A DNA stretch of 17,312 bases from a virus (Duplodnaviria; Heunggongvirae; Uroviricota; Caudoviricetes), in IMG/VR virus record IMGVR_UViG_2563366888_000002, positions 1-17,312 of that record. One strand, given 5' to 3'. The position numbers and the translations under genes were made by a program. The notes beneath the pieces are model-generated. The model worked only from the letters and a program-made list of their open reading frames with translations. It was not told the origin of the DNA and searched no databases. Positions 1,224-17,312 of the stretch are shown here, in pieces (the stretch's first letter is position 1; each line of letters starts with the position of its first letter).

Positions 1224-1238
1224 AAAGCGCCATGTGAA

Positions 1239-1347
<109 letters not shown>

Positions 1348-1363
1348 AAATAGTTAATTGCTC

Positions 1364-2647: not shown

Positions 2648-2693
2648 AGGTTGCTCCGGGCTATGAAATAGAAAAATGAATCCGTTGAAGCCT

Positions 2694-2785: not shown

Positions 2786-3852
2786 TTGATTTCAATTTTG
2801 TCCCACTCCCTGCCTCTGTCATCACGATACTGTGATGCCATGGTGTCCGACTTATGCCCGAGAAGATGTTGAGCAAACTTATCGCTTATCTGCTTCTCAT
2901 AGAGTCTTGCAGACAAACTGCGCAACTCGTGAAAGGTAGGCGGATCCCCTTCGAAGGAAAGACCTGATGCTTTTCGTGCGCGCATAAAATACCTTGATAC
3001 TGTGCCGGATGAAAGCGGTTCGCGACGAGTAGATGCAATTATGGTTTCTCCGCCAAGAATCTCTTTGCATTTATCAAGTGTTTCCTTCATTGATATTCCG
3101 AGAGCATCAACATGCAATGCTGTTGGGATGGCAATTTTTACGCCTGTTTTGCTTTGCTCGACATAAAGATATCCATCTACGATATCAGACCACTTCATTT
3201 CGCATAAATCACCAACTCGTTGCCCGGTAACAACAGCCAGTTCCATTGCAAGTCTGAGCCAACATGGTGATGATTCTGCTGCTTGATAAATTTTCAGGTA
3301 TTCGTCAGCCGTAAGTCTTGATCTCCTTACCTCTGATTTTGCTGCGCGAGTGGCAGCGACAGGGTTTGTTGTTATATGGCCTTCAGCTATTGCCTCTCGG
3401 AATGCATCGCTCAGTGTTGATCTGATTAACTTGGCTGACGCCGCCTTGCCCTCGTCTATGTATCCATTGAGCATTGCCGCAATTTCTTTTGTGGTGATGT
3501 CTTCAAGTGGAGCATCAGGCAGACCCCTCCTTATTGCTTTAATTTTGCTCATGTAATTTATGAGTGTCTTCTGCTTGATTCCTCTGCTGGCCAGGATTTT
3601 TTCGTAGCGATCAAGCCATGAATGTAACGTAACGGAATTATCACTGTTGATTCTCGCTGTCAGAGGCTTGTGTTTGTGTCCTGAAAATAACTCAATGTTG
3701 GCCTGTATAGCTTCAGTGATTGCGATTCGCCTGTCTCGGCCTAATCCAAACTCTTTACCCGTCCTTGGGTCCCTGTAGCAGTAATATCCATTGTTTCTTA
3801 TATAAAGGTTAGGGGGTAAATCCCGGCGCTCATGACTTCGCCTTCTTCCCAT
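2782..3852 (-). CDS. int: Lambda-type integrase (tyrosine recombinase)
   Basis: 356-aa ORF. Translation recognised as lambda Int essentially end to end (MGRRRSHERRDLPPNLYIRNNGYY...HLLGHKSDTMASQYRDDRGREWDKIEIK). Confidence 0.95.
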   Translation of the reverse strand: MGRRRSHERRDLPPNLYIRNNGYYCYRDPRTGKEFGLGRDRRIAITEAIQANIELFSGHKHKPLTARINSDNSVTLHSWLDRYEKILASRGIKQKTLINYMSKIKAIRRGLPDAPLEDITTKEIAAMLNGYIDEGKAASAKLIRSTLSDAFREAIAEGHITTNPVAATRAAKSEVRRSRLTADEYLKIYQAAESSPCWLRLAMELAVVTGQRVGDLCEMKWSDIVDGYLYVEQSKTGVKIAIPTALHVDALGISMKETLDKCKEILGGETIIASTRREPLSSGTVSRYFMRARKASGLSFEGDPPTFHELRSLSARLYEKQISDKFAQHLLGHKSDTMASQYRDDRGREWDKIEIK

Positions 3853-4048
3853 TTCTGATCCTCTTCAAAAGGCTACCTGTTACTGGTCGATTTAAGTCAA
3901 CCTTTACCGCTGATTCGTGGAACAGATATTCTCTTCCATCCTTAACCGGAGGAGGGAATATCCTGCATTCGCGCACCCATCGACGAATTGTTTCAAGGCT
4001 TCTTGGGCGTCGCTGGCGAGCGTTCCACTCCTGAAGTGTCAAGTACAT
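3830..4048 (-). CDS. xis: Excisionase Xis
   Basis: 72-aa ORF (MYLTLQEWNARQRRPRSLETIRRWVRE...) recognised as lambda Xis. Overlaps the int start as in lambda. GGAG 8 nt upstream of ATG. Confidence 0.95.
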   Translation of the reverse strand: MYLTLQEWNARQRRPRSLETIRRWVRECRIFPPPVKDGREYLFHESAVKVDLNRPVTGSLLKRIRNGKKAKS

Positions 4049-4071
4049 CGCAAAGTCTCCGCAATTACACG

Positions 4072-4096
4072 CAAGAAAAAACCGCCATCAGGCGGC
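4072..4096 (-). terminator. Putative intrinsic terminator-like hairpin (CCGCC-ATCA-GGCGG followed by a U7 tract on the minus-strand RNA)
   Basis: GC stem at 4082-4086/4091-4095 with A-run 4075-4081 on the plus strand (U-run on the leftward transcript). Located about 25 nt upstream of the xis start; function unverified. Confidence 0.35.
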
Positions 4097-4292
4097 TTGG
4101 TGTTCTTTCAGTTCTTCAATTCGAATATTGGTTACGTCTGCATGTGCTATCTGCGCCCACAGCATCCAGTGGTTATAGCAGTCGCTGATGTTCTCGGCTT
4201 CGATAACTCTGTTGAATGGTTCTCCATTCCATTCACCTGTAACTCGGAAGTGCATTTATCATCGCCATAAAACAAAACTCGCCGTAGCGAGT

Positions 4293-4324
4293 TCAGATAA
4301 AAGAAAACCCGCACTCGGCGGGTT
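4293..4324 (-). terminator. Putative intrinsic terminator on the leftward transcript
   Basis: 7-bp stem AACCCGC/GCGGGTT (4306-4312/4318-4324) with 5-nt loop, followed on the minus strand by UUCUUUUAU. Sits where I judge the sequence to diverge from lambda. Confidence 0.4.
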
Positions 4325-4603
4325 CGCATTCGTTCAAATTGCGTTTACTTCTTGGCGTTCTGTTCATCCATATCGATATACCATGGGTTGCTTCCCTTGG
4401 GCATGTTTAACGACTGCTCGCGATAGTATCTGATGCGCTCCATGAAATACTCGCGTGAGTGCTCAGGTTGCTCTCATGATACCTGCTCAGTGATAACAGG
4501 TATGTTAAGGCGCTCTCTGTACTCCATGCCTGATGCTGCAAGGTCAACGTTTACCTTGTTCTGTTTTTCTTTCGATTTCTCGGCGATGTTATGCCTGACA
4601 TTG

Positions 4604-4888
4604 TCAACCCGCCTCCTTCTGAACATAACGGTTATAAATCAGTCCCTGAGGGCCATAAGGAAGCGGGATGTGCAACTCCTCTGGTTCAGAAACTATCCAT
4701 TCCCCGGCCATCTCCGCTGGAGAGGTAATGATAAGTTGTTTGCTAATAAAAGGACCACTCCTCTCAACAACAAGCTTACCATCTTCATTAATAAAAGCTT
4801 GGATGTCAGGTGTGCTTCCACACTTGGTGATGCAGCGTTTGAACATTTTGTGTCCCCCCATTTTATGGACGGGGTAATTATAACACAT
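4604..4888 (-). CDS. Hypothetical protein (94 aa; possibly about 80 aa from an internal ATG preceded by a G-rich SD-like run)
   Basis: ORF from track; occupies the ea8.5 position but is not recognisably Ea8.5. No SD before the first ATG; GGGGGG 7 nt before the third Met codon. The antisense plus-strand ORF 4433..4891 looks low-complexity. Confidence 0.45.
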   Translation of the reverse strand: MCYNYPVHKMGGHKMFKRCITKCGSTPDIQAFINEDGKLVVERSGPFISKQLIITSPAEMAGEWIVSEPEELHIPLPYGPQGLIYNRYVQKEAG

Positions 4889-4972
4889 TGAAATATAGTA
4901 ATATTTGACGTAGATTTCTTTTGATCTATAAGCGATTTTTTAATGCTTTTAAGTTATAAATACTTGTTTTCA

Positions 4973-5548
4973 TCACCCATCTTGCTGCGGTGCTACTATT
5001 GAAAAGTACTCACACCCTTTAGCCCAAATAGTTTTGATAGTTGTCCAACTGACTGGAACCTTGATTTCGATTCTTCCGCTGCCGTCACAAGTTTCGCAAT
5101 CATCATCACCAAAGCATTCCGGGCAGCTTATAAACGTAGTTTCTGAAAATTCACCGGATAGCACACCCTTAGCGCCGTTCTCAGCGGTTAGTTTCTTCGG
5201 CACTATAACCCAACCATCCGGAGTTACCGGAGAATTGCCATTTATATCGAAGTTTGGCTCTGCGTCCTGAACCAGGAGGATGTAACCATTCTTGGCAGTA
5301 TCAAGTTCTAACGCCTCGGTGACGGTACCGAAATAGCGATTACCTAAATCCGCATCACAAGTGCTTACATCAATGGAAACCTCCATGCCTTCGATTAATT
5401 CTGGCAAGTTGTAAGTTTGGCTTACAGGTTCTGCTCCCAGTGATGCCAGTGCAATTCGTGCCAGTTCCATTTGTTCGCCACGAGTAAGCCCGTTTTCAAG
5501 CGGATTTTTAATGAACAATTCAATACGTTCTTTGGTAATAGTGGTCAT
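4973..5548 (-). CDS. Hypothetical protein with C-terminal zinc-ribbon (CPEC...CETCDGSG, DnaJ-like CxxCxGxG motif)
   Basis: 191-aa ORF. AAGGA 7 nt upstream of ATG. Only 10 nt downstream of the preceding gene's stop (operon-like packing). Cys-pair motifs read directly from the translation. Confidence 0.6.
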   Translation of the reverse strand: MTTITKERIELFIKNPLENGLTRGEQMELARIALASLGAEPVSQTYNLPELIEGMEVSIDVSTCDADLGNRYFGTVTEALELDTAKNGYILLVQDAEPNFDINGNSPVTPDGWVIVPKKLTAENGAKGVLSGEFSETTFISCPECFGDDDCETCDGSGRIEIKVPVSWTTIKTIWAKGCEYFSIVAPQQDG

Positions 5549-5558
5549 TTGTTAGTCC

Positions 5559-6314
5559 TTAAACTGCTAGTTGCAATTGCATTTCAAAGCGGTCGCGTTG
5601 TTCACAATACGCAAGAGAACCAGGGCTATTGTGTGCCTCAATCCGTTCTACCATTAATGCTGCGCGTGTCTCTTTACTTGCAGGTGCATAAGCCCCAGAC
5701 CAGGCTTTATCAATACCGATGTTTCGAGCGACGTTCGTACTATCTGCGCTGGCTAAGGGTAATTTTGTGAATATCAGCGGATTTAACATGCGCAATCCAT
5801 GTAGTTTCGTAACCAGCTGACCATGCCCATCAACAATGTGACGAATCAGGTCTTTCATTCTGGCTACCGCAAGAGTTGGGCGCTTTACGTCATAGTCGCC
5901 ACAACTACCGATAGCCACTCGCGGAAACTCATTGCACAAATGAATAAATCGCTCGTCACTTTCATTCATGTGCCACACTGGAACGCCAGCTAGTTTTCCG
6001 TGAGGCCACTCATTCAGAAGCGCATCATTTTCCTCCTCTCCGCCATCAATAACATCCGGGATAATGGCAAAATCGAATCTTGGGTGATTCTTCCAGCGAG
6101 CAACAAACTCGTAGTAATCGCTCCAGTCGATTTTGTTTTTGCCAGCTGCTTTCCAGGCGGTGAATGCACCGTTGTCCAGCGCGAACGACTGACAGTATTC
6201 AGCCGCGAGATTGATCTGGCCTGAATGCGCAAAACTGATAAACGCATGTCGCCCTTTCCATGCTCTCATTGCGCACGTATCAGGAGTAATAGGCCCACCG
6301 TGGTAGTGAATCAT
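5559..6314 (-). CDS. TGT-fold protein; candidate DpdA-like 7-deazaguanine DNA transglycosylase (251 aa from the SD-supported ATG)
   Basis: Start chosen at 6314: AAGGAG 6 nt upstream, and ATG overlaps the Ea22-like stop (TGAGATG). The track ORF extends to 6356 but overlaps the upstream gene. Motifs align to tRNA-guanine transglycosylase by eye: FALDNGAF ~ TDSGGFQ, IIPDVID ~ MIFDEC, ASADSTNVARNIG ~ FDCVMPTRNARNG. No C-terminal zinc-binding CxCxxC...H subdomain. Confidence 0.55.
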   Translation of the reverse strand: MIHYHGGPITPDTCAMRAWKGRHAFISFAHSGQINLAAEYCQSFALDNGAFTAWKAAGKNKIDWSDYYEFVARWKNHPRFDFAIIPDVIDGGEEENDALLNEWPHGKLAGVPVWHMNESDERFIHLCNEFPRVAIGSCGDYDVKRPTLAVARMKDLIRHIVDGHGQLVTKLHGLRMLNPLIFTKLPLASADSTNVARNIGIDKAWSGAYAPASKETRAALMVERIEAHNSPGSLAYCEQRDRFEMQLQLAV

Positions 6315-6315
6315 C

Positions 6316-6723
6316 TCACTCTCCTTTGATGCGAATGCCAGTAGCGCGGATTGCATCGATGACTTCAGAAACTTTGTATGCCATTACCGTTTGGTAATCA
6401 TCGTGAAAATCTGTTCGATGAAGCATGCTGCTACGTTCCGGGAGCAGTATTTCCCGCGCTTCCAGTTCTGCAATGCGCTTTTTTGCTGCTTCCAGTTCAT
6501 CCAGTAATTCCAGCACGGTAGCCGGATTAGCCTTGGCAACAAAATCCCGGACTGGCTTACAATCAATCTCCGCAATGGGTTGATACGATGTGTAGCCATG
6601 CTGTCTTGTATAACTACCGTGACGAATAACGAAAAAATCACCATTTATTTTTTTAGCCTGCCACTTATCTTCACCGGCTTTCTCTGCCGCTTCACGCAGT
6701 GCCTGAGAGTTAATTTCGCTCAC
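6316..6723 (-). CDS. Ea22/Ead-family protein (chimeric: lambda-like N-terminus and last residues, divergent middle)
   Basis: 135-aa ORF. N-terminus MSEINSQALREAAEKA... and C-terminal ...GIRIKGE are characteristic of the Ea22 family. Shorter than lambda Ea22 (about 182 aa). Confidence 0.7.
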   Translation of the reverse strand: MSEINSQALREAAEKAGEDKWQAKKINGDFFVIRHGSYTRQHGYTSYQPIAEIDCKPVRDFVAKANPATVLELLDELEAAKKRIAELEAREILLPERSSMLHRTDFHDDYQTVMAYKVSEVIDAIRATGIRIKGE

Positions 6724-6941
6724 GTCGAACCTCTCTGTTTACTGATAAGCTCCAGATCTTGCTGGCAACTGGCACAAGTCCGACAACCCTGAACGGCCAG
6801 TCGTCTTCGTTCATCTATCGGATCGCCACACTCACAACAATGAGTGGCAGATATAGCCTGGTGGTTCAGGCGGCGCATTTTTATTGCTGTGTTGCGCTGT
6901 AATTCTTCAATTTCTGATGCTGAATCAATTATGTCTGCCAT
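6720..6941 (-). CDS. TraR/DksA-family C4 zinc-finger protein (lambda orf73-like)
   Basis: 73-aa ORF with CCECGDPIDERRR...CRTCASC (two Cys pairs, DksA/TraR pattern). Overlaps the Ea22-like start by 4 nt. Confidence 0.8.
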   Translation of the reverse strand: MADIIDSASEIEELQRNTAIKMRRLNHQAISATHCCECGDPIDERRRLAVQGCRTCASCQQDLELISKQRGST

Positions 6942-7039
6942 CTTTCATTAATCCCTGAATTGTTGGTTAATACGCTTGAGGGTGAATGCGAATAATAAAA
7001 AAGGAGCCTGTAGCTCCCTGATGATTTTGCTTTTCATGT

Positions 7040-7321
7040 TCACCGTTCCTTAAAGACGCCGTTCAACATGCCGATCGCCAGGCTTAAATGAGTCGGTGTG
7101 AATCCCATCAGCGTTACCGTTTCGCGGTGCTTCTTTAGTACGCTACGGCAAATGTCATCGACGTTTTTATCCGGAAACTGCTGTCTGGCTTTTTTGATTT
7201 CAGAATTAGCCTGACGGGCAATGCTGCGAAGGGCGTTTTCTTGCTGAGGTGTCATTGAACAAGCCCCATGTCGGCAAGCATAAGCACACAGAATATGAAG
7301 CCCGCTGCCAGAAAAATGCAT
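7040..7321 (-). CDS. Small early-left hypothetical protein (likely translated from the internal ATG at 7255, giving 71 aa)
   Basis: ORF from track. The internal ATG at 7255 overlaps (ATGA) the stop of an upstream 27-codon hydrophobic mini-ORF (7252..7335), suggesting translational coupling. Lambda-like by memory. Confidence 0.5.
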   Translation of the reverse strand: MHFSGSGLHILCAYACRHGACSMTPQQENALRSIARQANSEIKKARQQFPDKNVDDICRSVLKKHRETVTLMGFTPTHLSLAIGMLNGVFKER

Positions 7322-7331
7322 TCAGTGGTTG

Positions 7332-7523
7332 TCATACCTGGTCTCTCTCATCTGCTTCTGCTTTCGCCACCATCATTTCCAGCTTTTGTGAAAGGGATGC
7401 GGCTAACGTATGAAATTCTTCGTCTGTTTCTACTGATATTGGCACAAACCTGACTCCAATTTGAGCGAGGCTATGTGCCATCTCGATACTCGTTCTTAAC
7501 TCAACGGGAGATGCTTTGTGCAT
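7332..7523 (-). CDS. Lambda orf63-like small protein
   Basis: 63-aa ORF. Overlaps the next upstream ORF by 28 nt, exactly as the lambda orf63/orf60a pair does. Confidence 0.55.
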   Translation of the reverse strand: MHKASPVELRTSIEMAHSLAQIGVRFVPISVETDEEFHTLAASLSQKLEMMVAKAEADERDQV

Positions 7524-7678
7524 ACAGCTCCCCGTTTATTATTTATCTCCTCAGCCAGCCGCTGTGCTTTCAGGGGATTTCTGATAACAGAAAGGCCGGG
7601 AAATACCCAGCCTCGCTTTGTAATGGAGTAGACGAAAGTGATCGCGCCCACCCGGATATTATCGTGAGGATGCGTCAT
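7496..7678 (-). CDS. Lambda orf60a-like small protein (60 aa from the ATG that overlaps the exo stop)
   Basis: Track ORF 7496..7684. The start at 7678 gives 60 aa and a 4-nt ATGA overlap with the exo stop, matching lambda organisation. Confidence 0.5.
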
Positions 7679-8355
7679 CGCCATTGCTCCCCAAATACAA
7701 AACCAATTTCAGCCAGTGCCTCGTCCATTTTTTCGATGAACTCCGGCACCATCTCGTCAAAACTCGCCATGTACTTTTCATCCCGCTCAACCACGACATA
7801 ATGCAGGCCTTCACGCTTCATACGCGGGTCATAGTTGGCAAAGTACCAGGCATCTTTTCGCGTCACCCACATGCTGTACTGCACCTGGGCCATGTAAGCC
7901 GACTTTATGGCCTCGAAACCACCGAGCCGGAACTTCATGAAATCCCGGGAGGTAAACGGGCATTTCAGCTCAAGGCCATTGCCGTCACTGCATAAACCAT
8001 CGGGAGAGCAGGCGGTACGCATACTTTCGTCGCGATAGATGATCGGGGATTCAGTAACATTCACGCCGGAAGTGAATTCAAACAGAGTTCTGGCGTCGTT
8101 CTCGTACTGTTTTCCCCATGCCAGCGCCTTAGCATTAACTTCCGGAGCCACACCGGTGCAAACCTCAGCCAGCAGGGTGTGGAAGTAGGACATTTTCATG
8201 TCAGGCCACTTTTTTCCGGAGCGGGGTTTTGCTATCACATTGTGAACTTCTGAAGCGGTGATGACGCCGAGCCGTAATTTGTGCCACGCATCATCCCCCT
8301 GTTCGACAGCTCTCACGTCGATTCCGGTACGCTGCAGGATAATGTCCGGTGTCAT
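7675..8355 (-). CDS. exo: Exonuclease (Red-alpha)
   Basis: 226-aa ORF recognised as lambda Exo ([54 protein letters not shown]...). Confidence 0.95.
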
Positions 8356-9137
8356 GCAGCCACCTTCTGCTCAGTGGCTTTCTGTTTCAGGAATCCAAGA
8401 GCTTTCACTGCTTCGGCCTGTGTCAGTTCTGACGATGCGCGAATGTCGCGGCGAAATATCTGGGAACAGAGCGGCAATAAGTCGTCATCCCATGTTTTAT
8501 CCAGGGCAATCAGCAGAGTGTTAATCTCCTGCATGGTTTCATCGTTAACCGGAGTGATGTCGCGTTCCGGCTGACGTTCTGCAGTGTATGCGGTATTTTC
8601 GACAATGCGCTCGGCTTCATCCTTGTCATAGATACCCGCAAATCCGAAGGCCAGACGGGCACACTGAATCATGGCTTTATGCCGTAACATCCGTTTGGGA
8701 TGCGACTGCCACGGCCCCGTAATTTCTCTGCCTTCGCGGGTTTTGAATGGTTCGCGGCGGCATTCATCCATCCACTCGGTAACGCAGATCGGATGATTAC
8801 GGTCCTTGCGGTAAATCCGGCATGTACAGGATTCATTGTCCTGCTCAAAGTCCATGCCATCAAACTGCTGGTTTTCATTGATGATGCGGGACCAGCCATC
8901 AACGCCCACCACCGGAACGATGCCATTCTGCTTATCAGGAAAGGTGTAAATTTCTTTCGTCCACGGATTAAGGCCGTACTGGTTGGCAACGATCAGTAAT
9001 GCGATGAACTGCGCATCGCTGGCATCACCTTTAAATGCCGTCTGGCGAAGAGTGGTGATCAGTTCCTGTGGGTCGACAGAATCCATGCCGACACGTTCAG
9101 CCAGCTTCCCAGCCAGCGTTGCGAGTGCTGTACTCAT
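8352..9137 (-). CDS. bet: Recombination protein Bet (Red-beta single-strand annealing protein)
   Basis: 261-aa ORF recognised as lambda Bet ([59 protein letters not shown]...). Confidence 0.95.
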
Positions 9138-9142
9138 CCGTT

Positions 9143-9439
9143 TTATACCTCTGAATCAATATCAACCTGGTGGTGAGCAATGGTTTCAACCATGTACCGG
9201 ATGTGTTCTGCCATGCGCTCCTGAAACTCAACATCGTCATCAAACGCACGGGTAATGGCTTTTTTGCTGGCCCCGTGGCGTTGCAAATGATCGATGCATA
9301 GCGATTCAAACAGGTGCTGGGGCAGGCCTTTTTCCATGTCGTCTGCCAGTTCTGCCTCTTTCTCTTCACGGGCGATCTGCTGGTAGTGACGCGCCCAGCT
9401 CTGAGCCTCAAGACGATCCTGAATGTAATAAGCGTTCAT
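9143..9439 (-). CDS. gam: Gam, RecBCD inhibitor (98-aa short form; the longer N-terminal extension is not in frame here)
   Basis: Translation [21 protein letters not shown]...[10 protein letters not shown] recognised as lambda GamS. In-frame stop at 9494-9496 upstream; the lambda-like extension peptide [15 protein letters not shown] is encoded in the +1 frame. Confidence 0.9.
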
Positions 9440-9514
9440 GGCTGAACTCCTGAAAATGGCTGTGAAAATATCGCCCGCGAAATGCCAGGCTGATTAGGAA
9501 AACAGGAAAGGGGA

Positions 9515-9721
9515 TTAGCGATTCAGGCCGTTACCGCGTCCGTCGAGAAAAACTTCCACGAGCAAATCACGGGTATAAGTGCGCTCGATGCCGCGATGCA
9601 GATAAAGCCGTCCGCGTAAATTAGCTGATGCAGTCCAGGTACCATCTTTGTGTTTGACCAGCATTCCTGGCATGACCGCACCTCGATTAACGGTCTGCGT
9701 TCCGTAATGTTGATGAACCAT
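9515..9721 (-). CDS. Small hypothetical protein in the kil position (68 aa from the SD-supported ATG); frame stays open upstream to a TTG at 9925
   Basis: AGGAG 5 nt before the ATG at 9721. The 136-codon track ORF starts on TTG with no SD. Non-lambda sequence. Confidence 0.45.
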
Positions 9722-9943
9722 AAAAACTCCTGCCCGTAAGCTGGGCTGCTGAACATATAGAGACTTCTGCGCGTATTCAGGCGGTGGATGGCCGCCGGTT
9801 GTCATAACTAAGTCGCCTCGTTGAAGCGACTGAGGTATGAAGTGTTGAGTTGATTTCAGCTGGTCACACCGACGTTCACGCGTCCGCTTCACCCCTCGCA
9901 CTCCCCGAAGCCTGCTGAAATTCAAACTGCGGATCTAAGCGGT

Positions 9944-10072
9944 CATCGCAACGGTGAAACAGGTGGTTACCGTATCGTTGTGTCGTTGCGATGAATTTAT
10001 TTAAAACTATAGTTGTTTTATCGTCAACAACAAAAGTTGTTTTGTCGGTTGTTTTAAATATAACTGGTTGTA
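9944..10072 (-). promoter_or_regulatory. Candidate OL/pL region and early leftward leader: 10-bp inverted repeat with 30-bp spacer plus GTTGTT/AACAAC operator-like half-sites
   Basis: CATCGCAACG (9944-9953) pairs with CGTTGCGATG (9984-9993). Half-sites AGTTGTTTT (10011-10019), CAACAAC (10025-10031), AGTTGTTTT (10035-10043), GGTTGTTTT (10048-10056), CTGGTTGTA (10064-10072). The same half-site recurs in the cI-cro intergenic region. No promoter hexamers confidently placed. Confidence 0.4.
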
Positions 10073-10161
10073 TTTAGGATGGATTTATTTTGTGACTTGC
10101 ATCGCATAGCGATAACTGAAGTGAGGTGTGGTGGTTTTTTGGACGGTATGAGTTATGAGGG

Positions 10162-10193
10162 GGAGGAAAAGAAAACCCGGCGCGGTTGCCGGG
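10162..10193 (-). terminator. Intrinsic terminator downstream of the lipoprotein gene (end of the cI-side operon)
   Basis: Stem CCCGGC/GCCGGG (10176-10181/10188-10193) with 6-nt loop, followed on the minus-strand RNA by UUUUCUUUUCC. 9 nt after the lipoprotein stop. Confidence 0.6.
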
Positions 10194-10201
10194 TATGATT
10201 A

Positions 10202-10582
10202 TCAGTCAGCCCAACCTGATTTCGAGTTTATTTGGGTTTCTGACATTGTGTATTTCTTAATCGTGTCATCGTTAAAAAGAATAGTAAGTTCTTTTTTCGT
10301 ACCGTTCGTTCCATTATGGAATAATCCATAGAATGGAATAAAAGTGGTGCCATTAACTTTTACTTTTGCAAAGGCGTACTTCCAGATCTCGTTTCCACTG
10401 TCAGTATATGAAACAGCATCAGGAGAACCAAAGTAAGATTTAACCTCATTCTTGGTTGTTTTACCTTCCTGAAGTTTAGACTGGACACTAATTTCAGTTT
10501 CATTTTTGAGTTGCTGGTTGCCTGAAGAAGCACACCCAGCCAATACAGATGCCATCATGGCAGCGATTAGGATTTTTCTCAT
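10202..10582 (-). CDS. BamE/SmpA-OmlA-like small lipoprotein; moron in the rex position downstream of cI
   Basis: 126-aa ORF. Signal peptide with lipobox LAGC. The EGKTTKNEVKSYFGSPD...WKY pattern resembles the BamE fold motif. Same strand as cI and followed by a terminator. Confidence 0.7.
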   Translation of the reverse strand: MRKILIAAMMASVLAGCASSGNQQLKNETEISVQSKLQEGKTTKNEVKSYFGSPDAVSYTDSGNEIWKYAFAKVKVNGTTFIPFYGLFHNGTNGTKKELTILFNDDTIKKYTMSETQINSKSGWAD

Positions 10583-10811
10583 TTTATGTTTCCATTCATT
10601 ATAATCAGAAACATCTTAACATAATGATTCGAAATAAAAACCGCTACGAGATAGGGGGACATTTTGCTGACAGTAGCAACAAATCTCAGCTAACAACGAG
10701 AATATTTACTGAAATATGCAAACAGATTTGGCGTTCTTATAGAGAATTTAGTGCAATATCTAATCCGAGTGGTATAAACCTTAACCTTCGCTCCCTTAAG
10801 TCGTAGATAAA

Positions 10812-11501
10812 TTAACCATGCTTCCTGTACGTCTGCGGCATGCTTCCAATGACCTTACCGAATATGAACACCCGGTTCATCTCGTCTTTCTCGATCGGGT
10901 CCCACGGCGAGTAGCTCTTGTTATCAGAGATAACCAGCAGCTTATCCTTCATCATTTGAAGACGTTTTACATGGGCAGTGTCGTCGTACAGAAACGCATA
11001 GATGCCATCACCGTCGAAAGATTTAACAGTGATATCAACGAACAGCAGGTCACCTGGTTCGATCGTCCCTGACATGCTGTCACCTCGCACGTTAATGATG
11101 CGGATATTTTCCGCCTTCCTGCCATCGAACATGTGACGAGCATCGTCAAACGAGTACTCAACCGAGCGTAGAACTTCTACAAACTCACGGTTGATTACAC
11201 CTGGCCCGGCACTGACTTCTATATCAAGAACGTCAATTTTGAAGTATTTGGAATGGCTGACAGTTGATTGTATTGGTTGCACTGTACTGTCTGACATATT
11301 TCCAACGCCAGAAGATAACCATTCTGCGCGCACACCCAAAGCGTTCGCGATCTCCACGATTTTAGTTGTTTGGTTAGCTTTCCCTGTTTCGATTTTCTGA
11401 ATAGCAGCCTGGCTAACCCCGACCAAATCCCCAAGCGCCTTTTGTGTAAGGCCTCGCGCTAATCTGGCTTCTTTAAGTCTTTCTGAGAGTGTTGTTTTCA
11501 T
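10812..11501 (-). CDS. cI: CI-type prophage repressor (N-terminal HTH_XRE, C-terminal S24 LexA-like peptidase domain)
   Basis: 229-aa ORF. HTH segment LTQKALGDLVGVSQAAIQKIETGK. Candidate Ala-Gly autocleavage site (VSAGPG). Ser/Lys dyad motifs GDSM and HVKRL. No SD before the ATG, consistent with a leaderless pRM-type transcript. Not lambda immunity. Confidence 0.85.
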   Translation of the reverse strand: MKTTLSERLKEARLARGLTQKALGDLVGVSQAAIQKIETGKANQTTKIVEIANALGVRAEWLSSGVGNMSDSTVQPIQSTVSHSKYFKIDVLDIEVSAGPGVINREFVEVLRSVEYSFDDARHMFDGRKAENIRIINVRGDSMSGTIEPGDLLFVDITVKSFDGDGIYAFLYDDTAHVKRLQMMKDKLLVISDNKSYSPWDPIEKDEMNRVFIFGKVIGSMPQTYRKHG

Positions 11502-11605
11502 AGATCAAATGTACAACCAAGGTTTTATTTCATCAAACGAAAATGGTTGTTGACTAAAAACAACCATAGTTTTAATCTTGATTCGGATTAACCACGGAGG
11601 TTGTT
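11502..11605. promoter_or_regulatory. Divergent promoter/operator region (OR; pR-like promoter for cro, leaderless pRM-like start for cI)
   Basis: Rightward TTGACT (11550-11555), 17-bp spacer, TAATCT (11573-11578), then GGAGG before the cro ATG. Inverted repeat ATGGTTGTT (11542-11550) / AACAACCAT (11559-11567) overlaps the -35. Confidence 0.6.
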
Positions 11606-11836
11606 ATGAACCCAGCAATCAAAACAGCGATCAATATCGTTGGTTCACAAAAGAAACTAGGCGATGCCTGCGAAGTTTCACAGCAGGCCGTCTATAAGTG
11701 GCTTCACAACAAAGCAAAGGTATCCCCTGAACATGTCGGCAGCATTGTTACGGCTACTGGTGGAGTTGTGAAGGCATACCAGATTCGCCCGGATCTTCCG
11801 AAGTTGTTTCCACACACCGAAAAGAACGCAGCTTAA
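11606..11836 (+). CDS. Cro-like HTH regulator (YdaS-like)
   Basis: 76-aa ORF divergent from cI with a strong SD. HTH-like segment KKLGDACEVSQQAVYKWLHN. Family call from memory. Confidence 0.7.
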   Translation: MNPAIKTAINIVGSQKKLGDACEVSQQAVYKWLHNKAKVSPEHVGSIVTATGGVVKAYQIRPDLPKLFPHTEKNAA

Positions 11837-11905
11837 ATTTCCATTTCACGCTCTTTAACAATAAGCAATCAACTTAACAGTCAATTCAAACTAAAGGAGT
11901 CAATT

Positions 11906-12445
11906 ATGCAACCACTTACATACCAACAGACTAGCGGATTTATTCCGACTGCGGTGATAAATCGTTCTCAAACAAAACAAGCTCCAGGCCACGAAAAAAT
12001 CCGTGATGCCGTCCGCGCCTGGTCGGCTGTAGATAATCAGGATGTCGTTGCCGCACTCATTGTGAATGAGTATCGGGAGCAGGGCGACGGCACCATCGAT
12101 TTCCCTGATGATGTCAGCCGTGCACGCCAGAAGCTGTTCCGCTTCCTCGATAACAAATTCGATTCTGAAAAATACCGAAATAACGTGCGTGAACTGACCC
12201 CGGCAATTCTGGCGGTACTACCGCTGGAATATCGCGGTTACCTGGTTGAGCAGGATAGCTTCATGACTCGGTTGGCTGAAATGGAAAAGGAACTCAGTGA
12301 GGCAAAACAGGCTGTCATTCTCAACGCACCACGCCACCAGAAACTGAAGGAAATGAGTGAAGGTATTGTGTCGATGTTTCGTGTGGACCCGGATCTGGCT
12401 GGTCCATTAATGGCGATGGTGACCACCATGCTGGGGGCAATATGA
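11906..12445 (+). CDS. CII-position regulatory protein (YdaT/CII-like), 179 aa
   Basis: AAGGAG SD. Located between cro-like and O with an ATGA overlap at the 3' end. Assignment is by position, not recognised sequence. Confidence 0.45.
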   Translation: MQPLTYQQTSGFIPTAVINRSQTKQAPGHEKIRDAVRAWSAVDNQDVVAALIVNEYREQGDGTIDFPDDVSRARQKLFRFLDNKFDSEKYRNNVRELTPAILAVLPLEYRGYLVEQDSFMTRLAEMEKELSEAKQAVILNAPRHQKLKEMSEGIVSMFRVDPDLAGPLMAMVTTMLGAI

Positions 12446-12531
12446 CAGGTTCAGAAATGGCGAAAGTCGGTCTGCGGGAACAGAACCGACTTTCAGGTGC
12501 AAATCGTAACACACTCATTGCGGGAGGAATT

Positions 12532-13461
12532 ATGGCAAACACTGCTGAGATATTCAATTTTCCAGTGCCGGATGCGGCACAAAAGGAGCCGCGCGTGGCA
12601 GATCTCGATGATGGTTATACGCGCATTGCAAATGAGTTGCTGGAAGCTGTGATGCTGGCCGGATTAACACAGCACCAGCTTCTGGTCTTCCTGGCTGTCA
12701 TGCGCAAAACATATGGCTTTAATAAAAAACTGGATTGGGTGAGCAACGAGCAACTTTCCGAGTTGACCGGGATATTGCCGCACAAGTGTTCTGCTGCAAA
12801 AAGCGTTCTGGTAAAGCGTGGGATTCTTATTCAGAGCGGGCGGAATATCGGCATTAATAATGTGGTCAGTGAATGGTCAACATTACCCGAATCAGGTAAG
12901 AAAAATAAAGTTTACCTGAAAGAGGTAAATTTACCTGAATCAGGTAAGAAAAGTTTACCCAAATCAGGTAAAGGCGTTTACCCGAATCAGGTAAACACAA
13001 AAGACAAACTAACAAAAGACAATATAAAACCTTTTTCGTCCGAGAATTCTGGCGAATCCTCTGACCAACCAGAAAACGATCTTCCTGTGGAGAAACCAGA
13101 TGCTGCAATTCAGAGCGGCAGCAGGTGGGGGACAGCAGAAGACCTGACCGCCGCAGAGTGGATGTTTGACATGGTGAAGACCATCGCGCCATCAGCCAGA
13201 AAACCGAATTTTGCAGGGTGGGCTAACGATATCCGCCTGATGCGTGAACGTGACGGACGTAACCACCGCGACATGTGCGTGCTGTTCCGCTGGGCATGCC
13301 AGGACAACTTCTGGTCCGGTAACGTGCTAAGTCCGGCCAAACTCCGCGACAAGTGGACCCAACTCGAAATCAACCGTAACAAGCAACAGGCTGGCGTGAC
13401 AGCCGGAAAATCAAAACTCGACCTGACAAACACTGACTGGATTTATGGGGTGGATTTATGA
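12532..13461 (+). CDS. O: Replication initiator O (non-lambda N-terminal iteron-binding domain, lambda-like C-terminal P-interaction domain)
   Basis: Conserved O motif ADLDDGY...LLEA...RKTYGFNK...SNEQLSELTG and lambda-like C-terminus (...WIYGVDL). Start set at 12532 (GGGAGG 5 nt upstream; aligns with the lambda O N-terminus). The track ORF begins at 12442. Confidence 0.85.
   Translation: MANTAEIFNFPVPDAAQKEPRVADLDDGYTRIANELLEAVMLAGLTQHQLLVFLAVMRKTYGFNKKLDWVSNEQLSELTGILPHKCSAAKSVLVKRGILIQSGRNIGINNVVSEWSTLPESGKKNKVYLKEVNLPESGKKSLPKSGKGVYPNQVNTKDKLTKDNIKPFSSENSGESSDQPENDLPVEKPDAAIQSGSRWGTAEDLTAAEWMFDMVKTIAPSARKPNFAGWANDIRLMRERDGRNHRDMCVLFRWACQDNFWSGNVLSPAKLRDKWTQLEINRNKQQAGVTAGKSKLDLTNTDWIYGVDL
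12883..12995. repeat. Replication origin iterons inside O (five about 18-bp direct repeats), followed by an A/T-rich segment to about 13040
   Basis: TTACCCGAATCAGGTAAG (12883), TTTACCTGAAAGAGGTAAA (12911), TTACCTGAATCAGGTAAG (12931), TTACCCAAATCAGGTAAA (12954), TTACCCGAATCAGGTAAA (12978), then ACAAAAGACAAACTAACAAAAGACAATATAAAA. Classic lambdoid ori architecture. Confidence 0.8.
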
Positions 13462-14159
13462 AAAACATCGCCGCACAGATGGTTAACTTTGACCGTGAGC
13501 AGATGCGCCGGATCGCCAACAACATGCCGGAACAGTACGACGAAAAGCCGCAGGTACAGCAGGTAGCGCGGATCATCAACGGTGTGTTCAGCCAGTTACT
13601 GGCAACTTTCCCGGCGAGCCTGGCTAACCGGGACCAGAACGAACTGAACGAAATCCGCCGCCAGTGGGTTCTGGCTTTCCGGGAAAACGGGATCACCACA
13701 ATGGAACAGGTTAACGCAGGAATGCGCGTAGCCCGTCGGCAGAATCGACCATTCCTGCCATCACCCGGGCAGTTTGTCGCCTGGTGCCGGGAAGAAGCAT
13801 CCGTTACCGCCGGACTGCCAAACGCCAGCGAGCTGGTTGATATGGTTTACGAGTATTGCCGGAAGCGTGGCCTGTATCCGGACGCAGAGTCTTATCCATG
13901 GAAATCAAACGCGCACTACTGGTTGGTTACCAACCTGTACCAGAACATGCGGGCCAATGCGCTGACTGACGCGGAATTACGGCGTAAAGCTGCCGATGAG
14001 CTGACCTGTATGACCGCGCGAATTAACCGTGGTGAGGCGATACCTGAACCAGTAAAACAACTTCCTGTCATGGGCGGTAGGCCTCTAAATCGTGCACAGG
14101 CTCTGGCGAAGATCGCAGAAATCAAAGCGAAGTTCGGACTGAAAGGAGCAACTGTATGA
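13458..14159 (+). CDS. P: Replication protein P (DnaB helicase loader)
   Basis: 233-aa ORF recognised as lambda P almost residue for residue (MKNIAAQMVNFDREQMRRIANNMPEQYDEKPQVQQVA...). Confidence 0.95.
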   Translation: MKNIAAQMVNFDREQMRRIANNMPEQYDEKPQVQQVARIINGVFSQLLATFPASLANRDQNELNEIRRQWVLAFRENGITTMEQVNAGMRVARRQNRPFLPSPGQFVAWCREEASVTAGLPNASELVDMVYEYCRKRGLYPDAESYPWKSNAHYWLVTNLYQNMRANALTDAELRRKAADELTCMTARINRGEAIPEPVKQLPVMGGRPLNRAQALAKIAEIKAKFGLKGATV

Positions 14160-14329
14160 CGGGCAAAGAGGCAATTATTCATTATCTGGAGACGCACAAG
14201 AGCTTCTGTGCGCCGGACGTTGCTGCGACAACAGGTGTGACATTAACCAGCATAAATCAGGCTGCGGCAAAAATGGCGCGGGCAGGAATCCTGGTCATTG
14301 ATGGTAAGGTCTGGCGAACGTTTGTTTAA
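14156..14329 (+). pseudogene. ren: ren N-terminal fragment (57 codons; lambda-like for about 50 residues, then divergent and terminated)
   Basis: ATG overlaps the P stop. Translation MTGKEAIIHYLETHKSFCAPDVAATTGVTLTSINQAAAKMARAGILVIDGKVWRTFV-stop matches lambda Ren (96 aa) only in its N-terminal part. Not in the ORF track because under 60 aa. Confidence 0.6.
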
Positions 14330-14475
14330 CGGTTAGCTACTCAGGATGATAGGGCGGGGCAAGTGAGTATGAAGCGGATTTTCAGGAATGCCATCAGAGT
14401 TTGGAAATAAAGTGGGTTTTCTAGTGGCAAGAGACTTGATAATATTTAGTTCTTTAAATCCAAGGAGATAGGGTT

Positions 14476-14970
14476 ATGAGAAAATTTATTATAGCCTTTG
14501 TCATAAGTGCCTCGTTTACTGCAAATGCTGGTGTAGAGAAGTTAGGGTCGTGGATAACAAAGTCTGAGATAAATAAAATGACTGACCAGACTGACTTTGT
14601 GGCTCTTAATTTATCACCAGATTCATATAACAAAGCAGGTACTGATCGTGCAACTTCACTGGTGTTGCGTTGTAGTGATAACAAAACAGATGCCTATTTA
14701 TCATTCAATGATTATATGGGTTCGGACAACCCAAGAATTACAGTGCGGTTAGATGGCGGAAAGCCGGTCAAGAGTGCTTGGGGAGGTGGGGAAGGCGGTG
14801 ATTCTGCATTTGCTCCACAACCAATACAATTTATAAAGACCTTGGCTAAGCATAAAAAAGCTATTTTTGGGTTTGAACCTTATGGATCAACTATGCAAGT
14901 AGTTGAGTTTGACTTGTCTGAGATTGATAAGGTTGTGGAAAAAATTTCACAGTCTTGCAATTGGAAATGA
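14476..14970 (+). CDS. Secreted hypothetical protein (signal peptide, two Cys), low-GC moron
   Basis: 164-aa ORF. N-terminal MRKFIIAFVISASFTANA signal-peptide pattern. GGAG-type SD. Visibly AT-rich relative to neighbours. Followed by a terminator. Confidence 0.65.
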   Translation: MRKFIIAFVISASFTANAGVEKLGSWITKSEINKMTDQTDFVALNLSPDSYNKAGTDRATSLVLRCSDNKTDAYLSFNDYMGSDNPRITVRLDGGKPVKSAWGGGEGGDSAFAPQPIQFIKTLAKHKKAIFGFEPYGSTMQVVEFDLSEIDKVVEKISQSCNWK

Positions 14971-14987
14971 CAAAAAAATTTCATATG

Positions 14988-15012
14988 AACCCAGTTGGCG
15001 CTGGGTTTTTTA
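14988..15012 (+). terminator. Intrinsic terminator after the secreted-protein gene
   Basis: Stem AACCCAG/CTGGGTT (14988-14994/15001-15007) with loop TTGGCG, followed by TTTTTAT. Confidence 0.65.
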
Positions 15013-15607
15013 TTTCAGTAGCCAATAATGCATTCAAAATCTCTTACTTGAGAAACGGCCTATTTGAGATTTCAGTCGTGGCAGGATGATCAGTTGATTC
15101 GAGTATTGACGCATTTGCGTTCGGAGCGATTACAGTAGATTGTAAATAATAATGAGAAACACATAGCCACATAGCCACCCCGTGGTATTGAAACCATATA
15201 ATGTTGGATTTGAAAACAGATCTTTTCCCATGTATTAATAACTACATCCCCGCGAGTGATTCAAAAAGGAGGGCCCAATTTTGTCCGAGTTTTTGTATTC
15301 CCCCGCATGCCGCTGCGGAGCACTACATCTGAGTGTCTGACTAGGGGATAAAATTAGACTGGATAGTGAGAAGAAAGTGGCGCGCTAGGCTGTGCCGAGT
15401 GCTACCAGTACACCTTGGGGGTGTGCAGCTTTCGCCGAGACTGTAGTGGGTATCGGTTAATGCACGAAAAACCGAGAGGTCAGACAACCAATTTGCCGTA
15501 GGATTGTTTCCGGTGCGATACCGGTCTACTAACTGAAAGCAATGCGAAAAAGCATAAACTCGGTCCTTCAGTCGCCCTACACACTATTTACTAAGAAGGG
15601 CTGAAGC

Positions 15608-15808
15608 ATGGATACAATTATTACATGGATGGGAGATCGTCTGTTGGGGGGGACACAAAAATCCGATCTGCAGCAGATGGCGATCACTGGATTAACTTCC
15701 GCGATTTGTTCAACAATTTTGTACACTGAAAAATTAAAACATGGTGAGCCTATTAACCCAAACGAAGAAGAAAAACTTTATAGGCTTTGGTATGAAGGAA
15801 ACGCTTGA
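15608..15808 (+). CDS. Hypothetical small protein (66 aa)
   Basis: ORF from track. AAGGG 9 nt upstream of ATG. No recognisable motif. Confidence 0.4.
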   Translation: MDTIITWMGDRLLGGTQKSDLQQMAITGLTSAICSTILYTEKLKHGEPINPNEEEKLYRLWYEGNA

Positions 15809-15916
15809 AAGAATAAAGCACAATTAAAACCTTTGATTTGCGATAATCAACTTGCCATAATTAAGTAATCGGAGCCTGAACAACTCCGGTGACTTCTGCG
15901 CTAAACGGGGACGTTT

Positions 15917-16018
15917 ATGCGCACATACAATCCAAACTATCTTCTCCTTTCACAGATGCAGAAATGCACCTGCAATTCTTTGCATCTAGCGTTTGACCTC
16001 TGTGGAGGTGAAGCGTGA
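15917..16018 (+). CDS. ylcH: YlcH-like small protein (33 aa)
   Basis: ATG at 15917; translation [33 protein letters not shown]-stop. Stop overlaps the GTG start of the ybcN-like gene, as in DLP12. Recognised from memory. Confidence 0.5.
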
Positions 16019-16470
16019 ACCTCCCACAAGATGGCATCAAATTGCATCGCGGTAACTTCACCGCTATCGGTCAGCAGATCCAGCCTTATCTGGAAGACGG
16101 CAAATGCTTTCGCATGGTGCTTAAACCGTGGCGAGAGAGACGCAGTCTTTCCCAGAATGCACTCAGCCACATGTGGTACAGCGAAATCAGTGAATACCTC
16201 ATCAGCAGGGGGAAATCGTTCGCTACCGCAGCATGGGTAAAAGATGCTCTCAAACACACATACCTCGGTTATGAAACCAAGGACCTGGTTGATGTCGTAA
16301 CCGGCGAAATCACTACTATCCAGTCGTTACGCCATACCTCCGATCTTGATACCGGAGAGATGTATGTCTTCCTGTGTAAGGTTGAAGCCTGGGCGATGAA
16401 TATTGGCTGCCACCTGACTATTCCGCAGAGCTGCGAGTTCCAGCTGCTGCGCGACAAGCAGGAGGCGTAA
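16015..16470 (+). CDS. ybcN: YbcN-like protein (NinB-family; DLP12 YbcN is described as a DNA base-flipping protein)
   Basis: 151-aa ORF with GTG start. Translation recognised as near-identical to K-12 DLP12 YbcN ([19 protein letters not shown]...). Contains the [12 protein letters not shown] motif. Confidence 0.85.
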
Positions 16471-16640
16471 TGGCTACACCGCTTATTCGTGTCATGAACG
16501 GACACATCTACAAAGTACCAAATCGTCGTAAGCGTAAACCTGAGCTGAAGCCATCCGAAATACCAACACTGCTCGGATATACCGCTAGCCTGGTTGATAA
16601 AAAATGGTTGCGACTGGCAGCAAGGAGGAATCATGGCTGA
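16470..16640 (+). CDS. ninE: NinE
   Basis: 56-aa ORF ([56 protein letters not shown]) recognised as NinE. Start overlaps the ybcN stop. Under 60 aa, so absent from the track. Confidence 0.8.
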   Translation: MATPLIRVMNGHIYKVPNRRKRKPELKPSEIPTLLGYTASLVDKKWLRLAARRNHG

Positions 16641-16923
16641 TTTGAGAAAAGCAGCGCGTGGTCGGGAATGCCAGGTAAGAATCCCTGGCGTATGTAATGG
16701 CAACCCTGAAACGTCTGTACTGGCACATATCCGGCTGACTGGATTGTGCGGCACCGGTACGAAACCGCCAGACCTGATTGCCACCATTGCATGTTCTGCC
16801 TGCCACGACGAAATCGACCGCCGCACGCATTTTGTTGACGCTGGATATGCAAAAGAATGCGCGCTGGAAGGTATGGCGAGAACGCAGGTTATCTGGCTGA
16901 AAGAGGGGGTAATTAAGGCGTGA
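16633..16923 (+). CDS. ybcO: YbcO-like DUF1364 protein (Cys-rich, putative nuclease)
   Basis: 96 aa from MADLRK...; recognised as YbcO-like. Overlaps ninE stop. Multiple Cys (CQVRIPGVC...CSACHDE). The track ORF starts at an upstream ATG (16594). Confidence 0.8.
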
Positions 16924-17253
16924 ATACTTACCACATCACACTACCCTGGCCGCCGAGCAATAACCGCTACTACCGCCATAATCGAGGGCGCACGCACATC
17001 AGCGCAGAAGGGCAGGCATACCGCGATAACGTCGCCCGAATCATTAAAGGCTCAATGCTGGATATCGGTCTGGCTATGCCTGTGAAAATCCGCATTGAGT
17101 GCCACATGCCGGATCGCCGTCGCCGTGACCTGGATAATCTACAAAAAGCCTCTTTTGACGCACTCACCAAAGCAGGTTTCTGGCTGGATGATGCTCAGGT
17201 CGTTGATTACCGCGTTGTGAAGATGCCTGTTACCAAAGGTGGGAGGCTGGAAC
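16920..17253 (+). pseudogene. rusA: rusA (Holliday-junction resolvase), 3'-truncated by IS insertion after about 111 codons
   Basis: GTG start preceded by GAGGGGG. Translation [26 protein letters not shown]...[14 protein letters not shown] matches RusA, then reads into the IS inverted repeat instead of the native C-terminus. Confidence 0.8.
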
Positions 17254-17312
17254 TGAACCGCCCCGGGTTTCCTGGAGAGTGTTTTATCTGTGAACTCAGG
17301 CTGCCAGATCAT
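17254..17312 (-). mobile_element. IS3-family insertion sequence end (same element type as at 1..93, opposite orientation, truncated by window edge)
   Basis: Starts TGAACCGCCCCGGG...; 17254..17312 is the exact reverse complement of 37..95. Interrupts rusA. Confidence 0.7.

Follow-up and report, generated by a model that had tools for sequence, protein, structure and literature searches.

The ren-ybcN interval of a lambdoid Escherichia coli prophage as a probable decaying cargo slot with a putatively exported moron protein and a structured RNA

How much of the DNA between ren and ybcN of a lambdoid prophage is functional cargo, and how much is wreckage? The question is raised by IMG/VR virus record IMGVR_UViG_2563366888_000002 (Caudoviricetes), of which positions 1 to 17,312 were analyzed here and are called the window. 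A first-pass annotation of the window described positions 14330-16014 as a moron island with a truncated ren, an AT-rich gene for a secreted protein of 164 amino acids (aa) with its own terminator, a 600-bp stretch free of open reading frames (ORFs), a 66-aa ORF and a ylcH-like mini-gene. All five features were found at the places given for them, whereas the start of the island at 14330 was not borne out: the left edge lies at about 14400, where the homology to ren ends. As judged from sequence comparisons, the interval is quite probably a decaying mosaic cargo slot with two functional-looking modules, namely an exported moron and a free-standing gene for a structured RNA, the rest being wreckage and backbone. 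The most interesting object of the interval is this RNA, which is unannotated and had been taken for empty sequence.

The stretch described as ORF-free (15011-15607) indeed has ORFs of 48 aa at most, whichever the strand, but it is not empty: it holds the remnant of an antirepressor gene and, at 15246-15576 on the plus strand, a structured non-coding RNA of 331 nucleotides (nt) with two closed domains and 83 proposed pairs, which is the most conserved element of the island. Compared to the same region of strain 806883-9-2019 (L002), the RNA is 99.1% identical, whereas identity drops to 87-92% in the antirepressor stub, in the ORF downstream and in the ybcN leader. Klebsiella phage Kp4856-1 (L004) has a version of the RNA that is 78% identical in entirely unrelated surroundings, and across about ten lineages the identity of the RNA ranges from 78 to 83%, with a conservation that sets in and breaks off sharply at the predicted start and terminator. 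Among the 5426 complete E. coli genomes to which all the genome counts given here refer, the RNA is present in 159, in one copy each and never with an annotated feature, and these copies show 99% identity or more; 100 of the 159 genomes, and also Klebsiella phages, have the RNA without the 164-aa gene. Pattern scans located it in 64 IMG/VR contigs, 14 metagenome contigs, Obesumbacterium proteus and Enterobacter bugandensis, and gave no match in plasmids. A 16-nt pattern of the RNA run against genome contigs produced only chance matches, in unrelated phyla. The set comprises 30 distinct intact sequences in about ten lineages and one decayed copy. The latter (L196:4025-4355, minus strand) is 76% identical, has a 1-nt deletion as well as mutations in helix P1, in a box resembling a Shine-Dalgarno (SD) sequence and in the GGUCAGACAACC hairpin, and still scores 291 bits.

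The structure was derived with RNAalifold plus one manually placed helix, and its 83 pairs make up 16 helices with 7 branch points, organized in a 5' domain (RNA positions 1-104, closed by P1, 1-6/99-104) and a 3' domain (112-328, closed by the long-range helix 112-117/323-328). Over 31 sequences, standard pairs occupy 96.8% of the cells, compared to 33-49% when the partners are slid by 1-3 columns, and double-sided changes occur at 17 pairs, compared to at most 6 when slid; the observed covariation score was reached by none of 500 shuffles. Lineages that are 17-22% diverged keep 97% of the proposed pairs, with 17 double changes and many changes from G-C to G-U. At least five sequence versions of helix 189-197/204-212 exist, and L215, which was found after the structure had been fixed, appears by eye to bring a further compatible one. 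The G-U pairs that are invariant in all the sequences (133/183 and 189/212) place the RNA on the plus strand. A covariance model gave 291-393 bits on members and no match in 80 control loci that are unrelated but have a 16-nt motif in common. The long invariant unpaired segments are GAGAGGUCAGACAACCAA, GAAAGCAAUGCGAAAAAGCAUAAACUCGG, UGGAUAGUG and the SD-like AAGGAGG.

The variable columns of the RNA are distributed 49/48/55 over the three codon positions, without bias, and every frame contains stops in some lineage. Coding readings of the region were considered and rejected: a 61-aa frame and a reverse-strand frame, each present in some lineages, and a 19-codon frame preceded by the SD-like box, none of which is kept in all the sequences. 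The box is invariant (RNA 21-27, window 15266-15272) and stands before that 19-codon UUG frame (RNA 36-95, window 15281-15340); since the frame has a stop in three E. coli variants and no third-position bias, the box is more likely an RNA feature or ribosome-binding feature than a start signal. Separately, the RNA variants are mosaics (alignment A7): L215 (3638-3966) combines a 5' domain of the L008/L011 type with a 259-284 helix of the L004 type, which indicates recombination inside the RNA gene with both strands of each helix inherited together. Complementarities of 11 nt between the RNA and the window occur at the chance rate (3), one of them involving the invariant segment GACUGGAUAGU (RNA 112-122) and the ybcN mRNA (16315-16325).

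The putative ends of the RNA are suggested by its conservation, which starts abruptly at ATCCCCGCGAG, 6-7 nt past a -10-like hexamer (ATTAAT, TTTAAT or TTAAAT) that stands 17-18 nt from a TTGAAA, TTGAAT or TTGTAT box. These hexamers and their spacing are nearly the sole conserved upstream positions in lineages that are otherwise unalignable there, and in the window they correspond to a putative sigma-70 promoter (15210-15239, plus strand) with a -35 box TTGAAA at 15210-15215, a TG at 15231-15232 and a -10 box ATTAAT at 15234-15239, its conservation being judged by eye. At the other end, conservation stops at CAGUCGCC, and in most lineages outside E. coli a canonical terminator (CCGCC..GGCGGUAUUUUUUU) follows 6-10 nt on; in L050, a terminator was called 6 nt 3' of the RNA. 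The genes found 3' of the RNA vary: depending on the lineage, they encode a protein of 191 aa whose N-terminus has a hydrophobic segment, an orphan of 183 aa (PHROG 27260), a pair of proteins of 95 and 162 aa, or directly NinB/DUF1367. Pfam and PADLOC gave no assignment for any of them except NinB. In L011, the RNA is directly upstream of NinB with no cargo between them and therefore stands as an independent unit. No terminator follows it in E. coli, L024, L037, Obesumbacterium and Enterobacter, where it adjoins a 118-aa ORF (PHROG 12412) that has no Pfam or NCBIfam match. An obligate pairing of the RNA with the 118-aa protein was considered and rejected, as a 51%-identical homologue of the ORF occurs without the RNA (L214) and the RNA occurs elsewhere without the ORF. 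Independently of this, the 183-aa orphan of Klebsiella phage Kp4856-1 (L004:3885-4436) shows by eye RHNLLH, an Rx4H motif like that of HEPN RNases; it has no HEPN, Pfam or PADLOC match and belongs only to PHROG 27260.

With its two domains, its candidate promoter and its place in a lambdoid cargo hotspot of Escherichia, Klebsiella, Enterobacter and Obesumbacterium, the RNA may be the founding member of an undescribed class of discrete phage RNAs, a reading that we prefer by a little. It could act as a ribonucleoprotein scaffold, decoy or ribozyme in conflicts between phage and host or between phages, or as a regulator of the cargo slot. The Rfam 15 models (4227) did not match the window at E <= 1, a 461-nt slice at E <= 10 or the RNA position in four other lineages, and ARAGORN found no tRNA or tmRNA. 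A literature search with two 16-nt strings of the RNA returned one unrelated match only, and the literature on non-coding RNAs of the nin region and of lambdoid phages yielded only small RNAs (Pas, AgvB, IsrK and others), none of which matches it.

Several observations nevertheless speak against a functional RNA of this kind. The structure was derived from the same sequences that were used in the covariation test, and recombination between variants complicates the counting of compensatory events. Pairing in helix 259-269/275-284 reaches only 84%, with the E. coli lineage requiring a register shift, and the minimum free energy of the RNA is not unusual (z = -1.1). There are only about ten independent lineages, all of them from Enterobacterales and at least 78% identical; further pattern scans of viral contigs and metagenomes added only five new variants and the decayed copy, with no relative below about 76% identity. 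Finally, the RNA of this window has no terminator of its own, and its promoter, like that of the moron described below, is a reading by eye that the consensus scanner did not call.

Alternatively, the RNA could be a cis-acting 5' leader, that is, a riboswitch, an attenuator or an RNA for processive antitermination like put of HK022, that controls the transcription or translation of whichever gene follows it in the slot, and perhaps of the ybcN-Q operon. The layout of promoter, RNA, terminator and gene keeps this cis-regulatory alternative alive: a gene without an obvious promoter always follows the RNA directly and with the same orientation, and the terminator that separates them in most lineages is arranged as in an expression platform. 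The junction with the 118-aa ORF is also conserved in E. coli, L024, L037, L215 and L217. The location in the nin region would fit as well, as lambdoid phages keep terminators there. Nevertheless, no conserved alternative pairing between the 5' arm of the terminator and the conserved core was seen by eye, and helix 112-117/323-328 closes the 3' domain ahead of the terminator. The downstream genes are mutually unrelated and, in L011, the gene that follows is simply ninB. Moreover, 331 nt with 7 branch points is much larger than the known put or EAR elements. A discrete RNA is favored over a pure cis-acting leader because the ends are closed by helices, the neighbors are interchangeable and the RNA stands alone before ninB; the leader hypothesis is thus possible but clearly the less likely one. 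The discrete RNA that we prefer would have its own promoter, be transcribed rightward from about A15246 on and end at a rho-independent terminator in most lineages outside E. coli, followed by lineage-specific cargo or ninB, whereas in the phages of E. coli, Enterobacter and Obesumbacterium the transcript would run straight into the 118-aa ORF. As a folded unit it would probably be protein-binding or catalytic, and it may double as a leader of the downstream gene.

The second module is the moron cassette (14401-15016, plus strand), which consists of the coding sequence of the 164-aa protein (14476-14970, plus strand), an SD sequence AAGGAG at 14462-14467, a terminator with its T-run and a promoter read by eye. 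The first-pass annotation had described an AT-rich gene for a secreted protein with its own terminator, and this description holds. The G+C content of 14401-15010 is 38.4%, compared to 51% in O-P-ren and 52% in ybcN-rusA, and an intrinsic terminator with a 9-bp stem and a T-run lies at 14987-15008, 17 nt 3' of the ORF. A candidate extended -10 element, TGaTAATAT, can be read by eye at 14437-14445; the scanner called no plus-strand site upstream of the gene. The N-terminus (MRKFIIAFVISASFTANA/G) looks by eye like a Sec-type signal peptide, and residues 1-17 have low pLDDT values. The protein matches over its full length PHROG 1848, a family of unknown function, with E 1e-70, and its homologues, 54-81% identical, occur in Salmonella, Klebsiella, Enterobacter, Citrobacter, Pantoea and Serratia. 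In E. coli, the gene is present in 85 of the genomes, compared to thousands for the flanking backbone. The 54%-identical homologue of Klebsiella is located between the tail chaperone and the tape-measure gene in four prophages, where its upstream region is conserved and terminators stand on both sides whatever the neighboring genes. This terminator-bracketed copy in another slot indicates that the gene moves between prophage slots as a self-contained cassette, which is the behavior of a moron. The view that the 164-aa gene behaves as a classic moron is therefore supported.

The same annotation had also credited the protein with two cysteines and no recognizable fold. The two cysteines stand, as C66 and C161 are invariant in 24 homologues and probably form one disulfide, but a fold can be proposed. 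The C-terminal 108 residues, and only these, match the Pfam domain VasI (PF11319) with 27.5 bits for a gathering threshold of 26.5, a marginal pass, and it is because of this match that the protein carries the RefSeq/PGAP name 'type VI secretion system-associated protein TagO'. A profile search with the family retrieved 3830 cluster representatives; a clear VasI domain was found in eight of the nine that were rescanned, and VasI proteins were reached at E 1e-20 to 1e-27. The predicted fold, a VasI/IalB-like beta-sandwich, is common to IalB and a flagellar ring protein, which suggests a general periplasmic module, and the model superposed on the solved structure of IalB (PDB 3DTD). Some results weaken any functional interpretation of the protein. 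The Pfam match lies only 1 bit over its threshold and the NCBIfam VasI equivalog (TIGR03360) failed, with 14.9 bits for the 124.2 required; a Foldseek search of the 164-aa protein against the PDB gave no match. The relatives are themselves of little help: the function of TagO/VasI is listed as unknown in a 2026 review on type VI secretion systems (T6SS; PMC13584744), and IalB is a chromosomal protein of alphaproteobacteria that has been linked to erythrocyte invasion and whose molecular activity is unknown (bioRxiv 10.64898/2026.01.22.700529). A sequence search of the PDB and a PADLOC run with the 164-aa protein also gave no match. The analysis brought no specific support for the part in lysogenic conversion, or as an immunity or lysozyme-inhibitor protein, that had been proposed for it. 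From sequence, no more can be proposed than that it is exported to the periplasm and binds a structure of the envelope.

Could the protein nonetheless be a genuine T6SS accessory (TagO/VasI) that the prophage supplies to the T6SS of its host? The PGAP name, a Pfam VasI score above the gathering threshold and the profile homology to VasI-domain proteins would agree with it. Yet the equivalog model was missed by a wide difference (14.9 and 124.2 bits), the protein is about 35 residues shorter than the VasI-domain matches of about 200 aa that were examined, and the fold is common to IalB and a flagellar ring protein. In addition, no T6SS cluster was found around the gene in the neighborhoods examined, namely, for E. 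coli, the nin region and, for four Klebsiella loci, the tail-gene slot, every one of which belongs to a prophage. An accessory role in the T6SS is consequently improbable. The moron reading that we retain would have the protein made in the lysogen, exported by the Sec pathway to the periplasm as a beta-sandwich of the VasI/IalB type, from a unit of possible promoter, gene and terminator that is carried by prophages and not by T6SS loci. There it would bind an envelope structure or an envelope-spanning machine, with superinfection exclusion or competition as the outcome.

It could also be argued that no cargo is functional other than the secreted protein, which would act in lysogenic conversion or periplasmic immunity, and that the rest of the interval is spacer and small hypothetical genes. 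The moron features of the 164-aa gene are confirmed and the 66-aa ORF and ren are non-functional, as this hypothesis would have it. Nevertheless, the supposed spacer holds the best-conserved sequence of the island, an RNA with compensatory base-pair changes across genera that is frequently found where the 164-aa gene is missing, and we consider it unlikely that the protein is alone. Least probable of all is that a function of the DNA itself (as a recombination handle or a protein-binding region) or a recent horizontal spread, and not a folded RNA, underlies the conservation of 15246-15576. The near-identity of the E. coli copies, the mosaic variants, the exchange of slot modules by recombination and the unremarkable z-score would fit it. 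The retention of 97% of the pairs in diverged lineages, the invariant G-U pairs that would be A-C mismatches on the other strand and a conservation that begins about 7 nt past a conserved -10 and ends just before a terminator speak against it.

The cargo slot itself can be followed by comparing the ren-ybcN interval across relatives. The window is the left half of a lambdoid E. coli prophage integrated beside ybhC, with the gene order integrase, recombination genes, S24 repressor, cro-like gene, YdaT-domain gene, O, P, ren, the interval and ybcN-ninE-ybcO-rusA, and several complete E. coli genomes contain DNA identical to it. Only 59 genomes carry 80% or more of 14330-16014, at 98-100% identity, and phage IdasGreatGrand has the island too; this recurrence shows that the island is not a chance assembly. 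The comparison contradicts the view of the island as backbone conserved in most relatives (59 genomes have the island, 85 the moron and 159 the RNA) and supports the proposal that the junction of ren with ybcN/ninB is a hotspot for cargo insertion, as relatives have other cargo on the same backbone. In strain 806883-9-2019 (L002), the O-P-ren...ybcN backbone is the same and the slot contains emrE, ylcJ, ybcK and an antirepressor stub. Strain X14-3 (L003) keeps the 164-aa gene and has two other orphan ORFs in exchange for 15121-15827. IdasGreatGrand (L005) has the same island with an extra 1.84 kb (L005:1568-3406) between window positions 15048 and 15050, which makes the island of the window a deletion derivative. 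On the extra segment lie a membrane-like ORF of 140 aa, the ybcN leader in a second copy and most of the antirepressor gene, which in this phage is complete (202 aa, Bro-N/P22AR_C). Its absence here leaves a deletion junction at 15048-15050 and, at 15050-15128 on the plus strand, the 3' remnant of the antirepressor gene (its last approximately 26 codons, ending with the TAG at 15126-15128), 87% identical to L002. The slot breakpoints recur at about 14400, 15048/15120 and 15828. The ybcN leader is duplicated in IdasGreatGrand (L005:2340-2468, 83% identical to window 15858-15985), the two copies flanking a cargo module, and may serve as a homology handle for cargo swapping.

The other components of the interval are wreckage or backbone. 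The ren gene (14156-14400, plus strand) has an in-frame TAA after codon 57, which leaves a 57-aa ORF at 14156-14329. The stop at codon 57 had been recognized, but the divergence from lambda Ren proposed after about 50 residues does not hold: compared to a presumed sequence of lambda Ren, similarity in the same frame continues past the TAA (RLATQDDRAGQVSMKRIFR and RFATREEREGKMSTNLVFK, respectively) to about codon 77. At the DNA level, homology with the ren genes of some 150 phages extends as far as 14400 and no further, and PGAP annotates a pseudogene. The TAA and the loss of homology at 14400 thus define ren as a nonsense-mutated, 3'-truncated pseudogene. The 66-aa ORF (15608-15808, plus strand) is present but is not a gene, being what a deletion has left of the 118-aa gene: 134 nt were lost between two copies of TGGTATGAAG (joint at 15788-15797), which shifted the frame and removed the C-terminal half that is conserved in the family. 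The ylcH-like mini-ORF (15917-16018, 33 aa) also exists, though not as cargo of the island. It is part of the ybcN backbone leader (15832-16014, plus strand), a 183-bp segment that about 2800 E. coli genomes, among them K-12, share at 82-94% identity and that precedes the NinB-like ybcN (16015-16470, plus strand), the right-hand backbone flank. The stop of the mini-ORF overlaps the GTG start of ybcN (GTGA); it is open in E. coli and in Klebsiella lineages (L004, L068, L201 and L210), with a GTGA or ATGA overlap and a conserved ..AFxLCGGEA tail, which suggests translational coupling to ybcN rather than a free-standing gene. In the proposed scenario, the remainder of the interval would consist of the ren pseudogene, the antirepressor stub, the 118-aa gene with its shifted frame and the leader of ybcN that contains the ylcH-like ORF.

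Other observations concern the slot and the prophage at large. Insertion sequences are found in the island: IS3 in four genomes (NZ_CP103974, NZ_CM129861, NZ_AP045810 and NZ_CP185789) and IS1 in the 164-aa gene of strain X14-3 (L003:3225-3922); IS21 is found in ninE of strain 582 (L001:11552-13521). A 126-aa gene is located on the minus strand (10202-10582), with the recombination genes on one side and the S24 repressor on the other; in an identical prophage it bears the annotation 'outer membrane protein assembly factor BamE', and it looks like another moron, of the lipoprotein type, in the immunity region. A protein with a YdaT toxin domain is encoded at 11906-12445 (plus strand), between the cro-like gene and O, at the position expected for cII. 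REP-like palindromes at 1243-1361 give weak, sub-threshold matches to naRNA4 in the chromosomal flank that adjoins ybhC, which places the prophage in the neighborhood of the lambda attB.

A moron in a cargo hotspot is textbook lambdoid biology and, for these aspects, the contribution of the analysis is mainly corrective. Two annotated 'hypothetical proteins' turn out to be a gene remnant and an ORF of a backbone leader, and the RefSeq name 'T6SS-associated TagO' is spreading to a prophage family of which no member was seen in a T6SS locus in the neighborhoods examined. Large, conserved and covarying RNAs without an Rfam family are, on the other hand, rare in E. coli, the best-annotated bacterium. 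As about 3% of the complete E. coli genomes have the RNA, and cultured phages have it as well (IdasGreatGrand, Turner and Klebsiella Kp4856-1), it is immediately testable. Its fixed position before ever-changing orphan genes suggests a link to the expression or protection of cargo in lambdoid phages, and knowing what it binds or does could reveal a new mechanism by which RNA acts in phage-host conflict.

Among known systems, the 164-aa protein resembles VasI/TagO by its homologous domain, its N-terminal signal peptide and its RefSeq name; it differs by its location in prophage slots, its shorter length, the failed equivalog and its own phage family, PHROG 1848. It differs from IalB (PF06776) by a sequence identity of only 9%. 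The cassette agrees with the lambdoid morons and with the cargo of DLP12 in using the same slot (emrE-ylcJ-ybcK in L002) and in its atypical G+C content, its own terminator and its presence or absence among similar phages, three features by which Hendrix and colleagues are said to have recognized morons. It differs from DLP12 in content, and decay has here taken the form of a 1.84-kb deletion, a 134-nt deletion and a nonsense codon in ren.

The RNA shares with put of HK022 and with IsrK/IsrJ of Gifsy-1 its rightward orientation in a lambdoid prophage, upstream of terminators and of the Q region. In the fuller island of IdasGreatGrand an antirepressor gene stands beside it, comparable to anrP, which lies near isrK in Gifsy-1. 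However, it has 331 nt and 16 helices, compared to about 70 nt for put/IsrK, and no Rfam model matches it, those of IsrK and IsrJ included. The order of promoter, RNA, terminator and orphan ORF, with a ribosome-binding site and no obvious promoter in most lineages, recalls the type III toxin-antitoxin systems of the ToxIN kind. Unlike these, no tandem repeats are visible in the RNA alignments, to which no repeat finder was applied, and the downstream ORFs are mutually unrelated, have no PADLOC or Pfam match and do not resemble ToxN/AbiQ, while the RNA of L011 has no cargo at all. A further analogy is with ROOL and GOLLD, which are also multi-helix RNAs of several hundred nt in temperate phages with highly conserved unpaired segments; compared to them, the 331-nt RNA does not match their Rfam models, has no adjoining tRNA genes, is smaller and is confined to Enterobacterales.

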